Origin: an uncultured Gammaproteobacteria bacterium
GTDB taxonomy: Bacteria; Patescibacteriota; Patescibacteriia; Patescibacteriales; UBA12465
Length of the DNA stretch: 49,246 nucleotides
Direction of reading: 5' to 3'
Assembly (NCBI GenBank): GCA_964355275.1
Contig: CAYHCB010000008.1
Span: 1 to 49,246 of the forward strand
A program made the position numbers and the translations under genes. The notes under the pieces were generated by a model. It worked only from the letters and a program-made list of their open reading frames with translations, was not told where the DNA came from and ran no database searches. Positions 13,579-49,221 of this stretch are shown here, in pieces (positions within the stretch are counted from its first letter, which is position 1; the number at the start of each line of letters is the position of its first letter).

Positions 13579-15240
13579 ATGCCTGAAGCAATAATAGATT
13601 TAATTAAATATTGGCACAATCGAGTAAAAACAATAGACGATTTAGCCGAAGCTAAGCGGGAAATATCCAAAAAATACAAAATTGGATCTCTTTTAAATTC
13701 CCAAATTTTAGAAGTATACCGAGATTTAAAAAATAAGCATAAATTACCGGTTAATTTTAATAAAAGTTTATGGGAATCATTACTCCGTAAGCGCTCTATT
13801 CGTACTTTATCAGGAATAGCGCCGGTGGCAGTCTTAACTAAACCATATCCTTGCCCAGGAAATTGCGCTTATTGCCCCAATGAACCCGGAATGCCAACTA
13901 GTTATTTACCAAATGAACCGGCGGTTATGCGGGCGGTACGCTGTAATTTTGATCCTTATAAACAAACCGTTTTAAGGCTTAATTCTTTAGAAAATAATGG
14001 GCATCGACCAAATAAAATAGAAATTATTGTTATTGGTGGAACGTGGAGTTATTTACCGATTAAGTATCAGTATTGGTATATTTTAAATTGTTTTCGAGCG
14101 GCTAATGATTTTACTCGCTTACGCAAGAATAAAAGCATTGGTTCATATTTAGAATTTAGTCCTGAATCTAAATCACAAATTTTAAAATCTGTTTTAGGAA
14201 AACTAAAATCGCCCTACCCTCATAATTTATCCTTAGATAAATTAAAAGATTTTTTAAATAAAGAGCAGACCAAAAATGAAAAAGCAGAATATAAAATTAT
14301 TGGGCTTACTCTTGAAACTAGACCTGATTATATTAATGAAAAAGAATTAAGACAAATGAGAGAGCTTGGTTGCACTCGAGTGGAAATTGGCGTACAAGCA
14401 CCAGATGATGAAATTTTAAAAATAAATAAACGAGGACACAATGTTGCCGAAATTACTCGAGCAACTAAAGAATTGCGGGATTTCGGGTTTAAAGTCACTT
14501 ATCATATTATGCCAGCTTTACCTGGTTCAACACCTAGTCGCGATTTAGAAATGTTTAAAATGTTATTTTTAGATAGCCGTTTTCAGCCAGATCAAATAAA
14601 ATTTTATCCAACGGTAGTTACTCAAGGAAGTTTACTTTATCGTTGGTGGAAAGCCGGCAAATATCAACCATATTCTGATGAAGAACTCCAAGAATTAATA
14701 ATTGAGTGTAAAAAAATTGTACCTGAGTATGTGCGAATTATAAGACTCATTCGTGATATTCCAGGAGAGTCAATTTTAGCGGGTAATAAGATTACTAATT
14801 TGCGACAAATTTTACAACAACGAGGGGTGAAATGTAACTGTATTCGGTGTCGCGAATCCAAGGAAACTACTTATGTTAAAGATTTTAAAATAAATATTCA
14901 AGAATATGAAGCTGCTGGTGGGATAGAATATTTTATTAGTGCCGATAGTCAAGATAATAAAACTTTGTATGGTTTTTGTCGTTTAAGATTAAGTAACACA
15001 AGTCTTATCGCTCCAGCCATTATTCGCGAACTTCATGTTTATGGTGAGCTAATGCCTGTTGGTAAAGAACAAAAGACGCAACACCGGGGTCTTGGTAAAT
15101 TATTATTACTAGAGGCGGAAAAAATTGTAATTAAATCTGGAATAAAAAAGGTGGCAATTATTTCTGGTGTGGGCGTGCGTGGGTATTATCGAAAAACCGG
15201 CTATAAACTTAAAGACAGCTATATGACTAAGAGTTTATAG
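13579..15240 (+). CDS. elp3: Elp3-family radical SAM/GNAT tRNA uridine(34) carboxymethyl-transferase homologue
   Basis: PCPGNCAYCPNEPGMPTSYLPNEPAVMRA radical-SAM region, and a C-terminal GNAT with QHRGLGKLLLLEAE. The length and domain order are as in Elp3. Confidence 0.85.
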   Translation: MPEAIIDLIKYWHNRVKTIDDLAEAKREISKKYKIGSLLNSQILEVYRDLKNKHKLPVNFNKSLWESLLRKRSIRTLSGIAPVAVLTKPYPCPGNCAYCPNEPGMPTSYLPNEPAVMRAVRCNFDPYKQTVLRLNSLENNGHRPNKIEIIVIGGTWSYLPIKYQYWYILNCFRAANDFTRLRKNKSIGSYLEFSPESKSQILKSVLGKLKSPYPHNLSLDKLKDFLNKEQTKNEKAEYKIIGLTLETRPDYINEKELRQMRELGCTRVEIGVQAPDDEILKINKRGHNVAEITRATKELRDFGFKVTYHIMPALPGSTPSRDLEMFKMLFLDSRFQPDQIKFYPTVVTQGSLLYRWWKAGKYQPYSDEELQELIIECKKIVPEYVRIIRLIRDIPGESILAGNKITNLRQILQQRGVKCNCIRCRESKETTYVKDFKINIQEYEAAGGIEYFISADSQDNKTLYGFCRLRLSNTSLIAPAIIRELHVYGELMPVGKEQKTQHRGLGKLLLLEAEKIVIKSGIKKVAIISGVGVRGYYRKTGYKLKDSYMTKSL

Positions 15241-15243
15241 TTT

Positions 15244-15272
15244 TTGACAAAAAGTCTTAGCTAAACTATCAT
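15244..15272 (+). promoter_or_regulatory. sigma70 promoter (TTGACA-N17-TATCAT) upstream of glyA
   Basis: TTGACA at 15244-15249 and tatcat at 15267-15272. Confidence 0.6.
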
Positions 15273-15293
15273 AAATAGGCACAAAATAAACAT

Positions 15294-16538
15294 ATGAAAT
15301 ACGAATTTTTACCATCTCAAGACCCAAAATTATGGTCTTTTATAAGTGAAGAAGAAACTCGCCAAGAAGACGAAATTGAGTTAATTGCTTCGGAAAATTA
15401 TGTCTCCCCGGCCGTTTTAGAGGCGATGGCGACAGTTTTAACTAATAAATATAGTGAAGGTTATAGTGGCCACCGTTATTACGGAGGTAATCAAATAATT
15501 GATAAGATCGAGAGTTTAGCTATAGATAGGGCTAAAGAATTATTTGGTGCTGAACATGTAAACGTTCAACCTCTTTCCGGTTCACCAGCTAACGCTGCGG
15601 TTTATATGGCCTTTTTAGAGCCAGGGGATAAAGTTTTAGGTTTACGTTTGGATCACGGCGGGCATTTATCTCATGGTCATAAAGTTAATTTTTCTGGTCG
15701 TTTATATAATTTTATTCAATATGGCGTTAATCTAGAAACTGGAATTATTGATATGGATGAGGTTAGGCGGATTGCTCTAGCGGAAAAACCAAAAATGATT
15801 GTCGCTGGTTTTAGTGCCTATTCTAGAGAAATTGATTGGCAAAAGTTTAAAGAAATTGCCGATGAAATAGGTGCTTATACTTTTGCTGATATTGCTCACA
15901 TTGCTGGACTTGTGGCCGCTGGGATTGTAAGTAGCCCGGTTCCTTATTTTGATGTTATTTCAACTACTACCCACAAAACATTACGTGGACCACGAGGCGC
16001 CATTATAATGTGTAAAGAAAAATATGCTAAACAAATTGATCGCGCCGTTTTTCCGGGTATGCAAGGAGGGCCCCATGATCATATTAACGCCGCTAAAGCC
16101 GTGGCTTTCGGTGAGGCGCTTAAACCAGAGTTTAAAGATTACTCAAGACAAGTTATTTTAAATGCCCAGGCCCTAGCTAAAGCTCTAATTAATTTGGGTT
16201 ATAAAATTGTATCAGGTGGCACCGATAATCATTTAATGGTGATTGATTTAAGTGGTCAAGATTTGGCCGGTAAGGATGTTGAGACTGCTTTAGAAAATAT
16301 TGGAATTTCTGTTTCTCGTTCAACTATTCCTAACGACCCAAATCCACCAATGAATCCTTCAGGTATTCGTGTTGGGACTCCTGCGGTTACAACGCGCGGC
16401 ATGAAAGAGGCGGAAATGGTAATTATTGCTGATTTAATAAATCAAGCAGTAACTAATAAAGACAATAAAGAGAAGTTGCTTAGTTTAAAACAAATTGTTA
16501 AAGATTTGTGTGGACACTTTCCAATTTATAAAAAATAA
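15294..16538 (+). CDS. glyA: serine hydroxymethyltransferase
   Basis: ELIASENYVSPAVLEA, and TTTHKTLRGPRGA with the PLP lysine. Confidence 0.95.
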   Translation: MKYEFLPSQDPKLWSFISEEETRQEDEIELIASENYVSPAVLEAMATVLTNKYSEGYSGHRYYGGNQIIDKIESLAIDRAKELFGAEHVNVQPLSGSPANAAVYMAFLEPGDKVLGLRLDHGGHLSHGHKVNFSGRLYNFIQYGVNLETGIIDMDEVRRIALAEKPKMIVAGFSAYSREIDWQKFKEIADEIGAYTFADIAHIAGLVAAGIVSSPVPYFDVISTTTHKTLRGPRGAIIMCKEKYAKQIDRAVFPGMQGGPHDHINAAKAVAFGEALKPEFKDYSRQVILNAQALAKALINLGYKIVSGGTDNHLMVIDLSGQDLAGKDVETALENIGISVSRSTIPNDPNPPMNPSGIRVGTPAVTTRGMKEAEMVIIADLINQAVTNKDNKEKLLSLKQIVKDLCGHFPIYKK

Positions 16539-17372
16539 ATGATAAAAATAGATGGTCGCGCTTTAGCCGAAAAAGTTAAAGACAAAATTGCCAAAGAAGT
16601 TTTTAAAATAATTAAAAAAGGCGAACTTCATCCTAGTTTAGCAATTATTTTAGTTGGTAACCGACCAGACTCCAGATTGTACGTTTCTCTTAAAGAGCGG
16701 GAGGCTAAAAAATTAGGGATAGATACTCATCGTTATGAATTAGAGGAGGATGTTAGTGAAAAAGAAATAATAGATACTGTTAATTTCTTAAATAAAGATG
16801 ATTTAGTTGATGCTATTTTAATCCAATTACCGTTACCAGAAAAGTTCAATACAGAAAAAATAATGGCCACACTTATTCCTAGTAAAGATGCTGATGGTTT
16901 TTTAGATAATCATCCAGATTATGTGACGTCCCCAGTTCTAGCGGCGGTTAAGCTGATGTTAGAAGATACAAAAATAGACGTGGCCAATTTAAGTGCCGGC
17001 GCTTTGTATAATTCTGATATTTTTGGTGGCGCTTTGAAATCTTTATTAAAAGATTATGGCTTTAAAAAAGTCTTGGGTATTACTAGCCATGACGCCAGTG
17101 AAGTAAAAAAAGTAGCTTCTTCGGTTGATGTTTTAGTAAGTGCTATTGGAGTTCCTTTGTTTATAAAAGATAATATGATAAAAGAAAACGCTGTAATAAT
17201 TGATATTGGCACCACCAAAGTTGGTTCAAAAATTTATGGTGATGTAGATTTTGATAGTGTTAAAGATAAGGTTTCTTATATTTCTCCGGTACCGGGTGGT
17301 GTGGGGCCGCTAACAATTGCCTTTTTATTTAGAAATGTTTTAGAAATTTATAAAAATAAAAAAACCGCGTAA
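16539..17372 (+). CDS. folD: bifunctional methylenetetrahydrofolate dehydrogenase/cyclohydrolase
   Basis: LAIILVGNRPDSRLYV, QLPLP, and PVPGGVGPLTIAFL. Confidence 0.9.
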   Translation: MIKIDGRALAEKVKDKIAKEVFKIIKKGELHPSLAIILVGNRPDSRLYVSLKEREAKKLGIDTHRYELEEDVSEKEIIDTVNFLNKDDLVDAILIQLPLPEKFNTEKIMATLIPSKDADGFLDNHPDYVTSPVLAAVKLMLEDTKIDVANLSAGALYNSDIFGGALKSLLKDYGFKKVLGITSHDASEVKKVASSVDVLVSAIGVPLFIKDNMIKENAVIIDIGTTKVGSKIYGDVDFDSVKDKVSYISPVPGGVGPLTIAFLFRNVLEIYKNKKTA

Positions 17373-17411
17373 CCAGCGGTTTTAAAATGTTGGTTAATTA
17401 AATATTTGCTA

Positions 17412-19190
17412 ATGCCACAACGAAAAAAACAATTACTAGACTTACTTAAAATTCATTTTGGTTATGAATCTTTTCGTCCTGGGCAGGAAGAGGCAATTGA
17501 TTATATTTTAGCTGGTCACAGCGCTGTCGTTATTTTACCAACTGGTGGTGGCAAATCAATGATTTATCAGTTACCTGCTTTAATTTTTGACGGTATTACT
17601 TTAGTGGTCTCACCACTGATTGCTTTAATGAAGGATCAGGTTGACTCTTTAGATCGCGTAGGAATTCCCTCTACATTTATTAATTCTTCTCTGTCACCAC
17701 AAGAGAGTGAAAATCGTTTAAGAAAAATAAAAGAGGGTTATTATAAAATAATTTATATTGCCCCAGAACGTTTTTATAATGCCGCGTTCATGGCTGATTT
17801 AAAAAATTTGAAAATAAATTTATTTGCGATTGATGAGGCTCACTGTATAAGTCAGTGGGGACACGATTTTCGTCCCAGCTATTTACGTTTAAAAGAGGTT
17901 ATTAAATTAATCGGATCTCCAATAGTAGTAGCCCTAACAGCCACCGCCACACCGGAAGTAAGAGAAGATATTGCCAAACAACTTAACTTAGTTAATCCGA
18001 ATTATGTAATTAGTGGTTTTGCTAGACCAAATTTACAAATGGCCGTAGTCCAGGCTAGTAGTAGTCAAAAAACCCAATATATTTTAGATGCCTTAGATAA
18101 TAATAATTTAGGGTCAGGTATTATTTATGTTGGCACCAGATCAAAGGCCGATGAGTTAGCTGATTTGCTTATTGAGCGCAATATAAAGGCCGTGGTTTAT
18201 CACGCCGGAATGGATGCTAGTAGTAGAGATTGGGTACAAAATAGTTTTATGAGGGGCGAGGCCCAAGTGGTAATTGCGACTAACGCTTTTGGTTTAGGTA
18301 TTAATAAAAAAGATATTCGTTTTGTTATTCATCATGATTTGCCAGGAACTATTGAGGCTTATTATCAAGAGGCTGGTCGTGCTGGCCGTGATGGTAACCC
18401 TAGTTTTTGTTTATTATTTTATTCTCCACAAGATAGATATTTGAGAGAGTTTTTTATTAAGGGTGATAATCCGGCGCCGAATATAATTATGGAAATTTAT
18501 AATTTGCTAGTTGATTGGTCGGATCGTAATTTAGCAATCGGCGAAGATTCTGTTTTAATTACTTATTCCGAAATAACCCAAAATTTATCTGACCGGGTTC
18601 CGGAAATGGCCATCGGTACAGCTTTAAAAATTTTAGAAAAAGAGGGTTATCTATCGCGGCCTAATGAAAAAAACTCTAATGCTTTTCTAAAGGCTAAGGT
18701 GGACTCTTTAACTATGATTGAGTTATCCGGTAAAAGGGCTAAAGTGCAAATAGAAATTATAAGTTTACTTTTTGAAAGGTTTGCTAATAATTTTCAAACT
18801 GGTTGGGAACTTAATTTAGAAGAAGTCGCTAGTATTATTGGGGTAAAAAAAGATTCGCTAGGTAGAGCTATAAAAAAATTAATGGAAAAGGATTTAGTAG
18901 AATATCGTCCACCATTTCGTGGTACAGAAATTAAGATTTTAAAAAGAGTTGCCCCAGAAGATTTAAATTTAGATTTTAAAGCCTTGAGAAATAAAGCGGA
19001 CAGAGCTTATGAGAAACTTGATGAAATGGAACAATATGTTTTTCAACTCGGTTGTCGCCAGCAGTATATTTTAAAATATTTTGGCGATCTTGATGCTAAG
19101 GATTGCGGGCAATGTGATAATTGTCTAAAACTTAAGAAAGTAAAAGATGCTGGTGGGAGTGATTATCGTTATAAACAATATTTAGGTTAA
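17412..19190 (+). CDS. recQ: ATP-dependent DNA helicase RecQ
   Basis: FGYESFRPGQEEAI, PTGGGKS, IDEAHCISQWGHDFRP, and the Zn-finger CRQQ...CGQCDNC. ATG at 17412 is preferred over the TTG at 17406. Confidence 0.9.
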   Translation: MPQRKKQLLDLLKIHFGYESFRPGQEEAIDYILAGHSAVVILPTGGGKSMIYQLPALIFDGITLVVSPLIALMKDQVDSLDRVGIPSTFINSSLSPQESENRLRKIKEGYYKIIYIAPERFYNAAFMADLKNLKINLFAIDEAHCISQWGHDFRPSYLRLKEVIKLIGSPIVVALTATATPEVREDIAKQLNLVNPNYVISGFARPNLQMAVVQASSSQKTQYILDALDNNNLGSGIIYVGTRSKADELADLLIERNIKAVVYHAGMDASSRDWVQNSFMRGEAQVVIATNAFGLGINKKDIRFVIHHDLPGTIEAYYQEAGRAGRDGNPSFCLLFYSPQDRYLREFFIKGDNPAPNIIMEIYNLLVDWSDRNLAIGEDSVLITYSEITQNLSDRVPEMAIGTALKILEKEGYLSRPNEKNSNAFLKAKVDSLTMIELSGKRAKVQIEIISLLFERFANNFQTGWELNLEEVASIIGVKKDSLGRAIKKLMEKDLVEYRPPFRGTEIKILKRVAPEDLNLDFKALRNKADRAYEKLDEMEQYVFQLGCRQQYILKYFGDLDAKDCGQCDNCLKLKKVKDAGGSDYRYKQYLG

Positions 19191-19191
19191 A

Positions 19192-19887
19192 ATGAAAATT
19201 GACGAGCAAAATAGATTACTTAAAATAGTTCGCGATAACTATCAAGAAATTGCTAGTCAATTTAATGTAACTAGAAAAAAACATGGCTGGCCAGAACTAG
19301 AAGAGCTCACTAAGAATATAAAGTCCGGTGATAATATTTTAGATGTTGGTTGTGGCAACGGTAGATTACTTGACGTTCTTGTTGGTAAAAAAATTAATTA
19401 TCTAGGCGTTGATAATAGTCAAAAATTAATAGAAATAGCAAAAAATAATTATCCTAATTTTAATTTTTTGGTAGCTGATATTTTAGAATTAACAAAAGTA
19501 ATTAATAAAAAATTTGATTATATAATTCTAGTAGCTGTTTTTCACCACTTACCTGGCCAGGAGTTAAGACTAAAAGCTTTATCTCAGTTAAAACAATTGC
19601 TTATTGAAGATGGGCAAATTATTTTTAGCGTTTGGCGTTTGTGGAATAAATTAAAATATCGTAAGTATTTAATTAAAACTGTTTGGCAAAAAATAATCGG
19701 TAAAAGTCAGCTAGAAGTTGGTGATATTTTATTCCCTTGGAAAAATAGTCGAGGTGAGATAGTTAGCGAAAGATATTATCATGCTTTTACTAAAAGAGAA
19801 CTTAAGCAACTTTTAAATAAGGCGGGATTTAAAAATTTTAAACTTTATAGCGATAAATATAATTATTGGGTTGTTATAAATAAGTAA
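19192..19887 (+). CDS. class I SAM-dependent methyltransferase, Trm9/ALKBH8-MTase-like
   Basis: Blocks NYQEIASQFNVTRKKHGWP, LDVGCGNGRLL, VAVFHHLPGQELRLKAL, DILFPW, RYYHAFTKRELKQ and NYWVV parallel yeast Trm9 as recalled from memory. Confidence 0.65.
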   Translation: MKIDEQNRLLKIVRDNYQEIASQFNVTRKKHGWPELEELTKNIKSGDNILDVGCGNGRLLDVLVGKKINYLGVDNSQKLIEIAKNNYPNFNFLVADILELTKVINKKFDYIILVAVFHHLPGQELRLKALSQLKQLLIEDGQIIFSVWRLWNKLKYRKYLIKTVWQKIIGKSQLEVGDILFPWKNSRGEIVSERYYHAFTKRELKQLLNKAGFKNFKLYSDKYNYWVVINK

Positions 19888-19892
19888 CTATC

Positions 19893-19922
19893 TTGACACC
19901 CATTGGGGGTGTATGCTATTGT
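19893..19922 (+). promoter_or_regulatory. promoter with embedded GC-rich palindrome (candidate CsoR-type operator)
   Basis: TTGACA at 19893-19898 and tattgt at 19917-19922. ACACCC-attgg-GGGTGT (19896-19912) occupies the spacer. Confidence 0.55.
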
Positions 19923-19931
19923 TAGTTTATT

Positions 19932-20168
19932 ATGAAAACAGAAGAACAAAGAATCAATAATATAATTGGTCAGCTTGAGGGGGTTAAAAAAATGTTTAAA
20001 TCTGATGGCAAAGATTGTTTTGCTTTAATTATTCAACTTAAAGCAATTCGCTCAGCCATGTCATCACTAATGACCAAGGTGATTACTAAAGAAATGGACT
20101 CCTGTTTTTTAGGTAAAGAAAAACAACAAGATAAGATAGCAAAAATACTTAAAGAAATAATTAAATAA
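19932..20168 (+). CDS. CsoR/RcnR/FrmR-family (DUF156) metal- or thiol-sensing repressor
   Basis: INNIIGQLEGVKKM start and an all-helical 78 aa. Cys29 and Cys58 are at CsoR ligand spacing, with Glu54 at the His position. Confidence 0.8.
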   Translation: MKTEEQRINNIIGQLEGVKKMFKSDGKDCFALIIQLKAIRSAMSSLMTKVITKEMDSCFLGKEKQQDKIAKILKEIIK

Positions 20169-20175
20169 TAATTTT

Positions 20176-20505
20176 ATGTCACAAGCAAAAGACGTTAGTC
20201 GAGATAGCTTCGAAAGTGAAGTTTTAAAAAGTGAGTTGCCTGTTTTAGTTGACTTTTGGGCTCCTTGGTGTGCCCCTTGTCGAATGATGGCACCAATTCT
20301 TGATGAATTATCAGCCGAGCTTAGCAGTAAACTAAAGATTGTTAAGGTTAATACCGAAGAACACAATAATCAGGATTTAGCCATAAAATATGAAATCCAA
20401 AGCATCCCTAATATGAAACTTTTTAAGAACGGGTCAGTTATTGGAGAATTTATTGGTTTACGCAATAAAGAAACTTTAAAAGAAGAATTAGAAGCCTTAC
20501 TATAA
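20176..20505 (+). CDS. trxA: thioredoxin
   Basis: VDFWAPWCAPCRMMAP active site, 109 aa. Confidence 0.9.
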   Translation: MSQAKDVSRDSFESEVLKSELPVLVDFWAPWCAPCRMMAPILDELSAELSSKLKIVKVNTEEHNNQDLAIKYEIQSIPNMKLFKNGSVIGEFIGLRNKETLKEELEALL

Positions 20506-46015: not shown

Positions 46016-49024
<3,009 letters not shown>

Positions 49025-49105
49025 ACTTTTGTTTGTTTAAAATTATTCTAAATATCGTCATAGCCTGAAAAATGGTTATGGCAAACAAAACAAAAAATAC
49101 CATTG

Positions 49106-49221
49106 TTCTGGTGATTGAAGCGGAGGGGTCACACCTGATCCCTTCCCGAACTCAGAAGTTAAGCCCTCCAGCGCCGATGATACTTGGGCCTGAGCCCTGG
49201 AAAAGTAGGTCGTCGCCAGAA
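49106..49221 (+). rRNA. rrf: 5S ribosomal RNA
   Basis: cccgaactcagaagttaag...gcgccgatgatact...agtaggtcg. Helix I: ttctggtga/tcgccagaa. A perfect 20-bp precursor stem extends beyond it (49094-49113 with 49217-49236). Confidence 0.9.

Follow-up and report, generated by a model that had tools for sequence, protein, structure and literature searches.

The window, by which we mean the whole 49,246-nucleotide stretch of DNA analysed, carries genes for Elp3 and a Trm9-family methyltransferase which, with a probability that we put at roughly three in four, constitute a wobble-uridine modification pathway of the archaeal/eukaryotic type in an ultra-small freshwater bacterium of the CPR/Patescibacteria. 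In archaea and eukaryotes, Elp3 and Trm9 are used to make mcm5U, a modification of the first anticodon base of tRNA. A 2017 review reported that a Trm9-type gene was absent from bacterial genomes; the family described here indicates that such genes are present in bacteria.

In the proposed pathway, Elp3 would function in the absence of the other Elongator subunits, as it does in archaea and in Dehalococcoides. With its radical-SAM and acetyl-CoA-binding domains it would convert U34 of some tRNAs to cm5U34 by adding a carboxymethyl group at C5; the methyltransferase would then use SAM to methylate the carboxylate, giving mcm5U34. The chemistry, the product and the tRNA substrates are all predicted from the sequences.

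The gene block

The two genes lie at the ends of a block of five, which, like every feature described below, is on the + strand. Elp3 (13579..15240, 553 residues, a predicted tRNA U34 cm5U synthase with radical-SAM and GNAT/KAT regions) is followed by glyA, encoding serine hydroxymethyltransferase (15294..16538; PF00464 542 bits, NF000586 607 bits), folD, encoding methylene-THF dehydrogenase/cyclohydrolase (16539..17372; both FolD Pfam domains), a RecQ-family helicase of 594 residues (17406..19190; TIGR00614 426 bits against a cutoff of 220, with Pfam DEAD, Helicase_C and RecQ_Zn_bind) and the SAM-dependent methyltransferase (19192..19887, 231 residues), a predicted synthase of the mcm5U34 methyl ester from cm5U34. 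The original prediction had all of these open reading frames correctly placed on this strand. The glyA stop codon directly abuts the folD start codon and, as had been pointed out, a single base separates the recQ TAA (19188–19190) from the methyltransferase ATG at 19192.

The description of these genes as a co-directional block stands as far as the shared strand is concerned, and the layout is a derived one peculiar to the clade. Scans of the region for promoters and terminators gave results at chance level, so that a single operon is at most a possibility. A promoter-like site, TTGACA-17-TATCAT (15244..15272), in the 53-nt spacer between Elp3 and glyA is the top consensus match of the region, at 11/12 positions; because the total of such sites across the region equals that in shuffled sequence, it is weak evidence and gives only a hint that glyA, folD, recQ and the methyltransferase gene may be transcribed separately from Elp3. 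The block recurs unchanged in one additional run; in a run belonging to a different study it is ~98.6% identical, with the gene order preserved. Two metatranscriptomes of the same samples yielded zero transcripts mapping to the block.

Assignment of the methyltransferase to the Trm9 family

Pfam and NCBIfam return only generic class I methyltransferase matches for this protein. Comparison with solved structures is more telling. The top relative is chain Z of 5CM2, the Trm9 of a Trm9–Trm112 complex, at 72 bits for the single sequence, with the next match at 44 bits; a family profile raises these values to 94.5 and 51 bits, widening the margin from 28 to 44. Similarity to the next-ranked solved methyltransferase is confined to the SAM-binding core. 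An HMM built from fungal Trm9 sequences only scores the window protein at 118.7 bits, its sole match in the window, and reports none of the E. coli enzymes CmoM (SmtA), UbiE, UbiG, CmoA and YmfD, so that no grouping with generic UbiE/SmtA-type enzymes was found. The conserved blocks that the original prediction had aligned to yeast Trm9 hold against a real fungal Trm9 from Yarrowia sp. (P0242), with which the protein shares 30% identity end to end (residues 6–231 against 18–229; 87 bits, E 2e-25) and with which the blocks NYQEIASQF..TRKK..WP, VAVFHH, DILFPW, RYYHAF and NYWVV are aligned. On these sequence comparisons the match to Trm9 is far beyond chance, and the assignment to this family, in preference to a generic UbiE/SmtA type, is confirmed.

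The AlphaFold2 model (pLDDT 91.3) has 5CM2_Z as its first-ranked Foldseek match, by a small margin over other class I methyltransferases. The family comprises 2,947 clusters at E ≤ 1e-10. Deep nodes of its tree are not resolved; the loci with the co-directional layout all fall in one clade.

Conservation of catalytic and substrate-binding residues

Equivalent residues were identified in a MAFFT alignment that included the 5CM2 chain, conservation was counted over 80 prokaryotic homologues, and both were compared with mutant data for yeast Trm9 (PMC4678810). All eight residues essential in the yeast enzyme are present in the methyltransferase; seven are kept in 71–80 of the 80 homologues, and the eighth, Y196, in 52. 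SAM-binding motif I, LDVGCGNG (residues 50–57, 19339..19362), is invariant in alignment A1, and D74 (19411..19413), D in 80/80, corresponds to ScTrm9 D72, whose replacement by alanine gives an inactive protein without SAM binding (PMC4678810). R28 (19273..19275; R in 78/80), a proposed carboxylate-positioning residue, is equivalent to R29, and R29A leaves ~5% activity (PMC4678810). The histidine pair H118–H119 (19543..19548) matches H115–H116 of ScTrm9. H119 is kept in 78/80 and H118 in 59/80, which mirrors the mutant effects, H116A being inactive and H115A only mildly affected (PMC4678810). Two tryptophans, W148 (19633..19635; 78/80) and W183 (19738..19740; 71/80), are the counterparts of W145 and W168, each of which yields an inactive enzyme when changed to alanine (PMC4678810).

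The remaining sites lie towards the C-terminus. The RYYH segment (R194–H197, 19771..19782), equivalent to R241, Y242 and Y243 of ScTrm9, belongs to the Trm9-specific β-hairpin lid, for which the model has strands at residues 178–184 and 190–197. Its arginine is conserved in 75/80, the first tyrosine in 72/80 and the second, as noted above, less well; R241A and Y243A strongly impair the yeast enzyme, as does N271A (PMC4678810), whose equivalent here is N224 (19861..19863; N in 77/80), a residue proposed to recognise O2/N3 of the uracil.

Elp3

The claim that 13579–15240 encodes a full-length Elp3 is borne out by TIGR01211, whose match spans residues 13–553 and, at 539.2 bits, exceeds the cutoff of 350. 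Pfam identifies Radical_SAM and Radical_SAM_C, and the GNAT domain (Acetyltransf_1) scores 20.2 bits, just below the 20.7 cutoff. Among solved structures, DmcElp3 (5L7J) ranks first with 403 bits; archaeal MinElp3 scores 373–381 bits and eukaryotic Elp3 289–316 bits. Both motifs named in the original prediction are present. The [4Fe-4S] cluster motif CPGNCAYC (13852..13875), located by reference to SYLP at residue 108, places C92, C96 and C99 in the canonical Cx3Cx2C arrangement and aligns to CPGKCIYC of DmcElp3; the acetyl-CoA motif QHRGLG of the KAT domain (residues 501–506, 15079..15096) is identical in the two proteins. The linker sequence CNCIRC (14833..14850), containing C419, C421 and C424, aligns to CRCIRC of DmcElp3 and is the zinc site; these three cysteines are conserved in bacterial and archaeal Elp3 and missing in eukaryotes (PMC6367351). 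Bacterial Elp3 had also been called rare, a view now outdated for the CPR, many of whose proteins are already named Elp3 by NCBI.

Linkage in related genomes and rearrangement in the window's clade

Related genomes support a functional link between Elp3 and the methyltransferase more strongly than does the block in the window. Elp3 is encoded within 10 kb of the methyltransferase gene in 52 of the 66 informative loci from named genomes, against a chance expectation of roughly 2% for a 1-Mb genome. The pair is head-to-head in 40 of these, co-directional as in the window in 11, and divergent at 2.9 kb in one. Head-to-head pairs extend across CPR classes, Chloroflexota, Acidobacteriota and Planctomycetota, and at least 14 contigs, judging by their lengths, are apparently common to the Elp3 and methyltransferase match lists.

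The order Elp3-glyA-folD-recQ-methyltransferase is, judging from these loci, a clade-specific local rearrangement of an ancestral head-to-head pair, of the type folD←glyA←Elp3← / →methyltransferase→bactofilin-like→PGM. The methyltransferase gene, originally at the head of Elp3, has ended up at the tail of the string, whereas the flanking genes have kept their places; we read the order in this way because the flanking genes are shared and the co-directional loci form a single clade in the tree. glyA follows Elp3 in 26/80 related loci, in both layout classes, and recQ is immediately upstream of the methyltransferase gene in 27 related loci, every one in the window's clade. The linkage is loose in this clade, since no Elp3 lies within 10 kb of the methyltransferase gene in 11 loci whose upstream sequence extends for 6 kb or more; there, Elp3 may be elsewhere in the genome or may have been lost.

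Alternative readings

The pathway could be real but supplementary, serving a few tRNAs beside MnmE/MnmG (and MnmA), so that core decoding would not be unusual. We regard this as a serious contender, only slightly short of an even chance. One 5.9-Mb contig that carries the pair (L072) is labelled Acidobacteriota, and genomes of that type normally contain MnmE/MnmG. Against this, a search of the 49-kb window, and of 1.25 Mb made up of the window and related loci, found no homologues of MnmG, MnmE or MnmA, which is a weak argument because that sample amounts to ~1.2 genome-equivalents of neighbourhoods.

We consider it unlikely that the methyltransferase is a Trm9-like paralogue acting on something other than Elp3-made cm5U34, such as another carboxylated nucleoside, a small molecule or a protein, with its proximity to Elp3 an inherited synteny. 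The generic domain matches would suit such a paralogue, as would the packing of the gene against recQ and not Elp3, the lack of Elp3 within 10 kb in half of the clade's informative loci, and the replacement of Y196 (Sc Y243) in 28/80 homologues. However, R28, H119, R194 and N224, the proposed holders of the cm5U carboxylate and uracil, are kept in 75–78/80. Moreover, inertia alone does not readily explain a head-to-head pairing that recurs across CPR classes and three other phyla, and no other neighbour gene was found to be conserved across the loci. That Elp3, historically described as a histone acetyltransferase, is a lysine acetyltransferase of proteins or has some other non-tRNA role, the U34 pathway being absent, is highly improbable: the sub-threshold GNAT match and a JGI label of 'Histone acetyltransferase' on one relative would fit, but the radical-SAM cluster motif is intact and a role in tRNA modification accords with the conserved pairing with a Trm9-family enzyme.

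Comparison with known systems

Known Trm9 enzymes require Trm112. The archaeal enzyme binds it (PMC6144793). No Trm112-family open reading frame was found near the Elp3 and methyltransferase genes. Two central hydrophobic Trm112-contact residues of the Yarrowia lipolytica enzyme, V59 and F78, are N48 and N69 in the window protein, and the V59 position is R or K in 54/80 prokaryotic homologues; these polar or charged residues hint that the bacterial methyltransferase may act independently of Trm112.

The fungal Trm9–Trm112 complexes (Saccharomyces cerevisiae; Y. lipolytica, PDB 5CM2) share with the window methyltransferase the class I fold and the two-stranded Trm9-specific lid, and both fungal Trm9 and the ALKBH8 methyltransferase domain, the latter with TRMT112, have Elp3 as pathway partner, as is proposed here. 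Unlike fungal Trm9, the window enzyme is encoded by a stand-alone bacterial gene and has a longer helix (residues 154–168) in place of a short loop in the fungal protein; it lacks the AlkB and RRM domains of ALKBH8.

Among bacterial U34 enzymes, E. coli CmoM (SmtA) is analogous in chemistry, forming a SAM-dependent methyl ester on the side-chain carboxylate of cmo5U34, and has a class I fold. Membership of the CmoM family was rejected for the window protein: the pairwise score is 22 bits, over the SAM-binding half only, CmoM is undetected by the Trm9 HMM, and in the tree it sits on a long branch apart from the family. MnmE–MnmG(–MnmC), the canonical route to xm5U34 in bacteria, has the same C5 of U34 as target and the same decoding purpose, but its enzymes and chemistry are unrelated, employing a GTPase and an FAD enzyme with methylene-THF and glycine.

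DmcElp3 (Dehalococcoides mccartyi, PDB 5L7J) is, like the window Elp3, a bacterial stand-alone enzyme with the same Cx3Cx2C, zinc-triad and QHRGLG motifs. The window protein differs in an insert of ~45 residues (178–226) and in ~70 additional N-terminal residues, which the TIGR01211 model matches from its position 8 onwards; the first 75 residues of the protein contain 17 K/R and 9 D/E. The N-terminal extension of archaeal MinElp3 likewise has no counterpart in DmcElp3 (PMC6367351).

The archaeal system (Haloferax volcanii HVO_2888 and HVO_1032 with Trm112; Sulfolobus solfataricus) has Elp3 without Elp1, Elp2 or Elp4–6. In S. solfataricus the genes for Elp3 and Trm9 form a cluster (PMC5372719), and (m)cm5U has been reported in H. 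volcanii tRNA (PMC6367351). Archaeal Trm9 has been described in Sulfolobales and Halobacteriales only (PMC5372719), whereas the host of the window is bacterial and its family, at 2,947 clusters, is large.

Organisation of the Elp3–methyltransferase block

Analysis of the open reading frames around the Elp3 gene bore out the original prediction of a five-gene co-directional layout. All five lie on the + strand, with Elp3 at 13579–15240 (553 aa), glyA at 15294–16538 (414 aa), folD at 16539–17372 (277 aa), a RecQ-family helicase gene at 17406–19190 (594 aa) and the methyltransferase gene at 19192–19887 (231 aa), separated in that order by 53, 0, 33 and 1 nt. The close apposition of the last two genes, also part of the prediction, is correct: the recQ TAA occupies 19188–19190, a single base follows, and the methyltransferase ATG begins at 19192. 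The Elp3 and methyltransferase genes are contained within one 6.3-kb block. The helicase clears the RecQ-family cutoff but not the RecQ equivalog cutoff. Some 180 residues separate its helicase core from the RecQ zinc-binding motif (residues 528–574), and this interval contains a winged-helix (MarR/GntR-like) segment at 462–502; no HRDC domain was detected in the protein.

A scan of the block for promoters and terminators gave counts no higher than those from shuffled sequence, so that operon boundaries cannot be called from it. The best promoter-like site of the region is in the Elp3–glyA spacer, in a scan that as a whole is at chance level. Two metatranscriptomes of the same samples contained no contig of this organism and no transcripts of the block. 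Directly downstream of the methyltransferase gene, at 19932–20505, are genes for a metal-sensing repressor of the CsoR family (78 aa) and for a thioredoxin, a pair kept at the same position in several relatives; an extended −10 element is part of a promoter-like site at 19893–19922, between the methyltransferase and CsoR genes.

The remainder of the window is core chromosome, encoding NusA, an H+-pyrophosphatase, trigger factor, SmpB, tmRNA, IF3, L20, RNase J, S1, FtsH, NusB and RNase III; a gene for a SocA/Panacea-domain antitoxin is located at 821–1303. The G+C content is approximately 0.31–0.35, rising to 0.47 at the 3′ end of the contig because a complete 23S rRNA and a 5S rRNA are situated there (46017–49221); no 16S rRNA was found upstream of the 23S rRNA within the window. 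Close homologues are labelled Candidatus Falkowbacteria or Patescibacteria. Lake and freshwater metagenomes contain the contig again: an identical copy in one more run, and a copy of approximately 98.6% identity, with gene order unchanged, in a run of a separate study.

The methyltransferase as a member of the Trm9 family

Pfam and NCBIfam return only generic class I methyltransferase matches for this protein, and specific tests of family were therefore required. Among all solved structures, the top match is 5CM2_Z, the Trm9 chain of the Yarrowia lipolytica Trm9–Trm112 complex, with 72.3 bits over nearly the full length, the next reaching 43.8 bits over the SAM-binding core only. A profile of 20 homologues from CPR bacteria scored 5CM2_Z at 94.5 bits and the next structure at 50.9. 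In the reciprocal direction, an HMM built solely from eight named fungal Trm9 proteins has a single match in the window, the methyltransferase (118.7 bits, E = 7.6e-35), and at the related loci it picks up all 82 ORFs of the family, with a median of 86 bits; E. coli CmoM/SmtA, UbiE, UbiG, CmoA and YmfD all went unreported. The conserved blocks of yeast Trm9 named in the original prediction every one align in full-length Yarrowia Trm9, which is 30% identical to the window protein from end to end. The HMM, structure-database and pairwise comparisons thus place the protein, as had been proposed, in the Trm9 family and not among generic UbiE/SmtA types.

The specific alternative that the protein is CmoM/SmtA draws on a BLASTP match to the E. 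coli enzyme of 22.3 bits (E = 0.006), which is confined to the N-terminal SAM-binding half; with no full-length similarity, and with CmoM/SmtA passed over by the Trm9 HMM, this identity is ruled out.

An AlphaFold2 model of the methyltransferase (pLDDT 91.3) has the two-stranded lid of the Trm9 type: strands βA and βB, which follow β5, span residues 178–184 and 190–197, with RYYH at 194–197, and the region aligns to RYRYYH of the Yarrowia protein. Foldseek with this model ranks 5CM2_Z first, by a margin over other class I methyltransferases that is small because the class I fold is too generic. In a maximum-likelihood tree, fungal Trm9 and the prokaryotic proteins share one unresolved group, with weak deep support; four of the five E. 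coli methyltransferases are outside the family on long branches, and YmfD is inside the polytomy. Since deep nodes are unresolved and branches long, we do not use the tree as the main argument for Trm9 identity. Automatic annotation at JGI calls some relatives 'TRM9' or 'alkB family protein 8'. Overall, we assign the window protein, on its sequence comparisons, to the Trm9 family.

Alanine mutants of eight residues of Saccharomyces cerevisiae Trm9 (R29, D72, H116, W145, W168, R241, Y243 and N271) lose activity (PMC4678810), and equivalents of all eight are present in the window methyltransferase. Counted over 80 bacterial and archaeal homologues, D72 (window D74) is kept in all 80, R29 (R28), H116 (H119) and W145 (W148) in 78 each, N271 (N224) in 77, R241 (R194) in 75, W168 (W183) in 71 and Y243 (Y196) in 52. 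The neighbouring H118, the equivalent of yeast H115, is kept in only 59 of the 80, and the H115 alanine mutant is only mildly impaired (PMC4678810); the pattern of conservation agrees in this respect with the mutant data.

Features of the Elp3 protein

Elp3 scores 539.2 bits against TIGR01211 (cutoff 350), residues 13–553 matching model positions 8–522. Its best solved relative is Elp3 of Dehalococcoides mccartyi (DmcElp3, 403 bits), followed by archaeal MinElp3 (373–381 bits) and eukaryotic Elp3 (289–316 bits). The radical-SAM [4Fe-4S] motif CPGNCAYC (C92-x3-C96-x2-C99) aligns with CPGKCIYC of DmcElp3, and the acetyl-CoA motif of the KAT/GNAT domain, QHRGLG at residues 501–506, is identical in the two proteins; the Pfam GNAT match covers residues 450–542. 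A cysteine triad in the linker, C419/C421/C424 (CNCIRC), aligns with CRCIRC of DmcElp3; such a zinc-binding triad between the domains is a feature of bacterial and archaeal Elp3 (PMC6367351). Unlike DmcElp3, the window protein begins with an additional basic stretch of some 70 residues, which the family model covers, and the corresponding N-terminus of archaeal Elp3 is important for tRNA binding (PMC6367351). Bacterial Elp3 was termed 'a rare example' in 2019 (PMC6367351), and Elp3 is described as present in 'numerous bacteria' in a 2026 paper (PMC13315578). NCBI automatic annotation already calls many CPR proteins 'Elp3'; a literature search on Elp3 in CPR bacteria found nothing linking the two.

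Elp3 and the methyltransferase are linked in other genomes

Scanning species-representative genomes yielded at least 445 tblastn-confirmed relatives of the methyltransferase, of which 80 loci (numbered with the prefix L) were used for comparison; an exhaustive search of representatives, counted as clusters of 50% identity, gave 2,947 for the methyltransferase family with E ≤ 1e-10 as the threshold and 336 with E ≤ 1e-30. As labelled in the databases, the CPR loci are from Falkow-, Parcu-, Peregrini-, Uhr-, Magasanik-, Kerfeld-, Berkel-, Dojka-, Gracili- and Saccharibacteria, and those outside CPR from Chloroflexota (Anaerolineae, Aquidulcis), an acidobacteriotal contig of 5.9 Mb, Planctomycetota and two archaea. 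The label 'uncultured Gammaproteobacteria', carried by many TPA_asm MAG records, looks unreliable and was set aside as a misfit with CPR-like gene content.

An Elp3 gene lies within 10 kb of the methyltransferase gene at 52 of the 80 loci, that is, at 52 of the 66 with enough upstream sequence to judge, and the linkage of the two genes suggested by the window is therefore upheld. Were a single-copy gene placed at random in a genome of some 1 Mb, such proximity would be expected in about 2% of cases. The genes are head-to-head at 40 loci, mostly with less than 250 nt between the tblastn alignment ends, co-directional as in the window at 11, and divergent and 2.9 kb apart at one. Comparison of the Elp3 and methyltransferase match lists revealed at least 14 further apparent pairs, recognised by contigs of equal length. 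The bacterial Trm9 family is large, and its physical pairing with Elp3 extends over CPR classes and into several phyla besides.

Clustering of all neighbouring ORFs at the 80 loci identified no further partner kept across most of them, and no thiolation-enzyme or Kti12-like genes were found among the conserved neighbours. The clusters of intermediate frequency are antisense shadow ORFs or housekeeping genes; glyA, folD and recQ are near the methyltransferase gene in about a third of loci.

At eight loci from relatives within the window's clade (L003, L005, L007, L008, L009, L018, L022 and L028), the methyltransferase gene is followed after some 100–1200 nt by a gene for tRNA-Arg(UCG), with tRNA-Met(CAU) and tRNA-Lys(CUU) often next in line. 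With U at its wobble position, this tRNA-Arg is a possible substrate of the pathway; the window has no tRNA gene at the corresponding position. Locus L007 has two members of the methyltransferase cluster, at 2026–2757 (−) and from 9986 onward (+), the second very divergent (20.9 bits to the fungal Trm9 HMM).

Origin of the co-directional layout

Comparison of the flanking genes relates the two main layouts to one another. At head-to-head loci such as L033 and L073, Elp3, glyA and folD are read in one direction, and the methyltransferase, a bactofilin-like membrane protein and PGM in the other. In the window and its relatives, the bactofilin-like gene and PGM are instead read away from Elp3, which is followed in the other direction by glyA, folD, recQ and the methyltransferase gene. 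The two layouts have the same flanking genes, so the change is a local move of the methyltransferase gene, which has left the head of Elp3 for the end of the string, and the co-directional layout of the window is derived from the head-to-head pair. The methyltransferase tree has one clade (SH-aLRT 90) that takes in every co-directional locus, and almost all of the head-to-head loci belong to the other. Linkage is looser in the window's clade, where Elp3 is missing within 10 kb at 11 loci whose upstream sequence extends for 6 kb or more. At two of these, L012 (1445–4600) and L013 (2256–5100), six tandem genes for small T4SS-pilin-like proteins are directly upstream of glyA, in the place taken by PGM, the bactofilin-like gene and Elp3 in the rest of this clade.

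The string Elp3–glyA–folD is found on the same strand in 26 of the 53 Elp3-carrying sequences (the 52 loci and the window, at 13579–17372) and in both layout classes, the head-to-head examples including L033, L035, L047, L059, L065, L071 and L073. It joins an enzyme using SAM and acetyl-CoA to one-carbon metabolism, which may reflect SAM or one-carbon supply, or inherited synteny only.

Possible independence of Trm112

All characterised Trm9 enzymes require Trm112 (PMC4678810, PMC6144793). Regular-expression searches and tblastn with E. coli YcaR located no Trm112/YcaR-like ORF in the window or in the gene neighbourhoods that make up the 80 loci. The core of the Trm112 interface in Yarrowia Trm9 is formed by six hydrophobic residues, two of which are altered in the prokaryotic family. 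At the position of V59 the window protein has N48, and 54 of the 80 homologues carry R or K there; at that of F78 it has N69, and most homologues carry D, E, K, N or S. The family retains F116 and D117. An interface altered in this way would fit an exposed surface and independence of Trm112, without proving either.

A predicted route to mcm5U34 and the MnmE/MnmG question

Wobble uridines are modified in nearly all organisms, and the routes are usually regarded as divided by domain, bacteria using MnmE/MnmG, and eukaryotes and some archaea Elp3 with Trm9–Trm112. By analogy with the latter, the window Elp3 would convert U34 to cm5U34 by means of a 5′-deoxyadenosyl radical derived from SAM and the acetyl group of acetyl-CoA, radical chemistry that is established for the family (PMC6367351, PMC13315578). 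The methyltransferase would then methylate the carboxylate of cm5U34 with SAM as donor, forming the methyl ester, mcm5U34. By homology to a published model (PMC4678810), R28 and H119 would place the carboxylate, N224 and H118 would read the uracil, and W148 would stack on it. We infer both steps, cm5U34 formation and methyl-ester formation, for this organism. Further 2-thiolation to mcm5s2U is possible; neither MnmA nor another thiolase was found in the window and related loci.

No MnmE, MnmG or MnmC gene was found within the 49 kb of the window. E. coli MnmG, MnmE and MnmA probes likewise found no match in the 1.25 Mb formed by the window and loci, which amounts to some 1.2 genome-equivalents of non-random neighbourhoods, so that absence there is a weak argument. 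A literature search on the MnmE/MnmG status of CPR bacteria found nothing pertinent. We put at roughly one in three the tentative reading that, here and in much of CPR, a minimal Elp3–Trm9 module of two enzymes replaces MnmE/MnmG, its Trm9 being free of Trm112, and that NNA and NNG codons are decoded with mcm5(s2)U34.

If the product is mcm5U, a 'eukaryotic' tRNA modification would extend to a major part of bacterial diversity, a naturally Trm112-independent Trm9 would be offered for mechanistic work, and there would be a concrete handle on accurate decoding in organisms with tiny genomes. The pairing would also bear on the origin of the Elongator pathway.

Relation to known systems

So far, mcm5(s2)U34 has been tied to eukaryotes and a few archaea. 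Trm9 orthologues are likewise recorded in the literature only from eukaryotes and a few archaea. According to a 2017 review, bacteria have no gene similar to the methyltransferases that partner with Trm112, bacterial U34 being modified via MnmEG/MnmC (PMC5372719). Because Trm9 is recorded only outside bacteria and automatic labels are partial, we class the methyltransferase as a bacterial member of known families and a known pathway: the enzyme families and the pathway have been described before, and what is new here is the bacterial member, with a function predicted from sequence.
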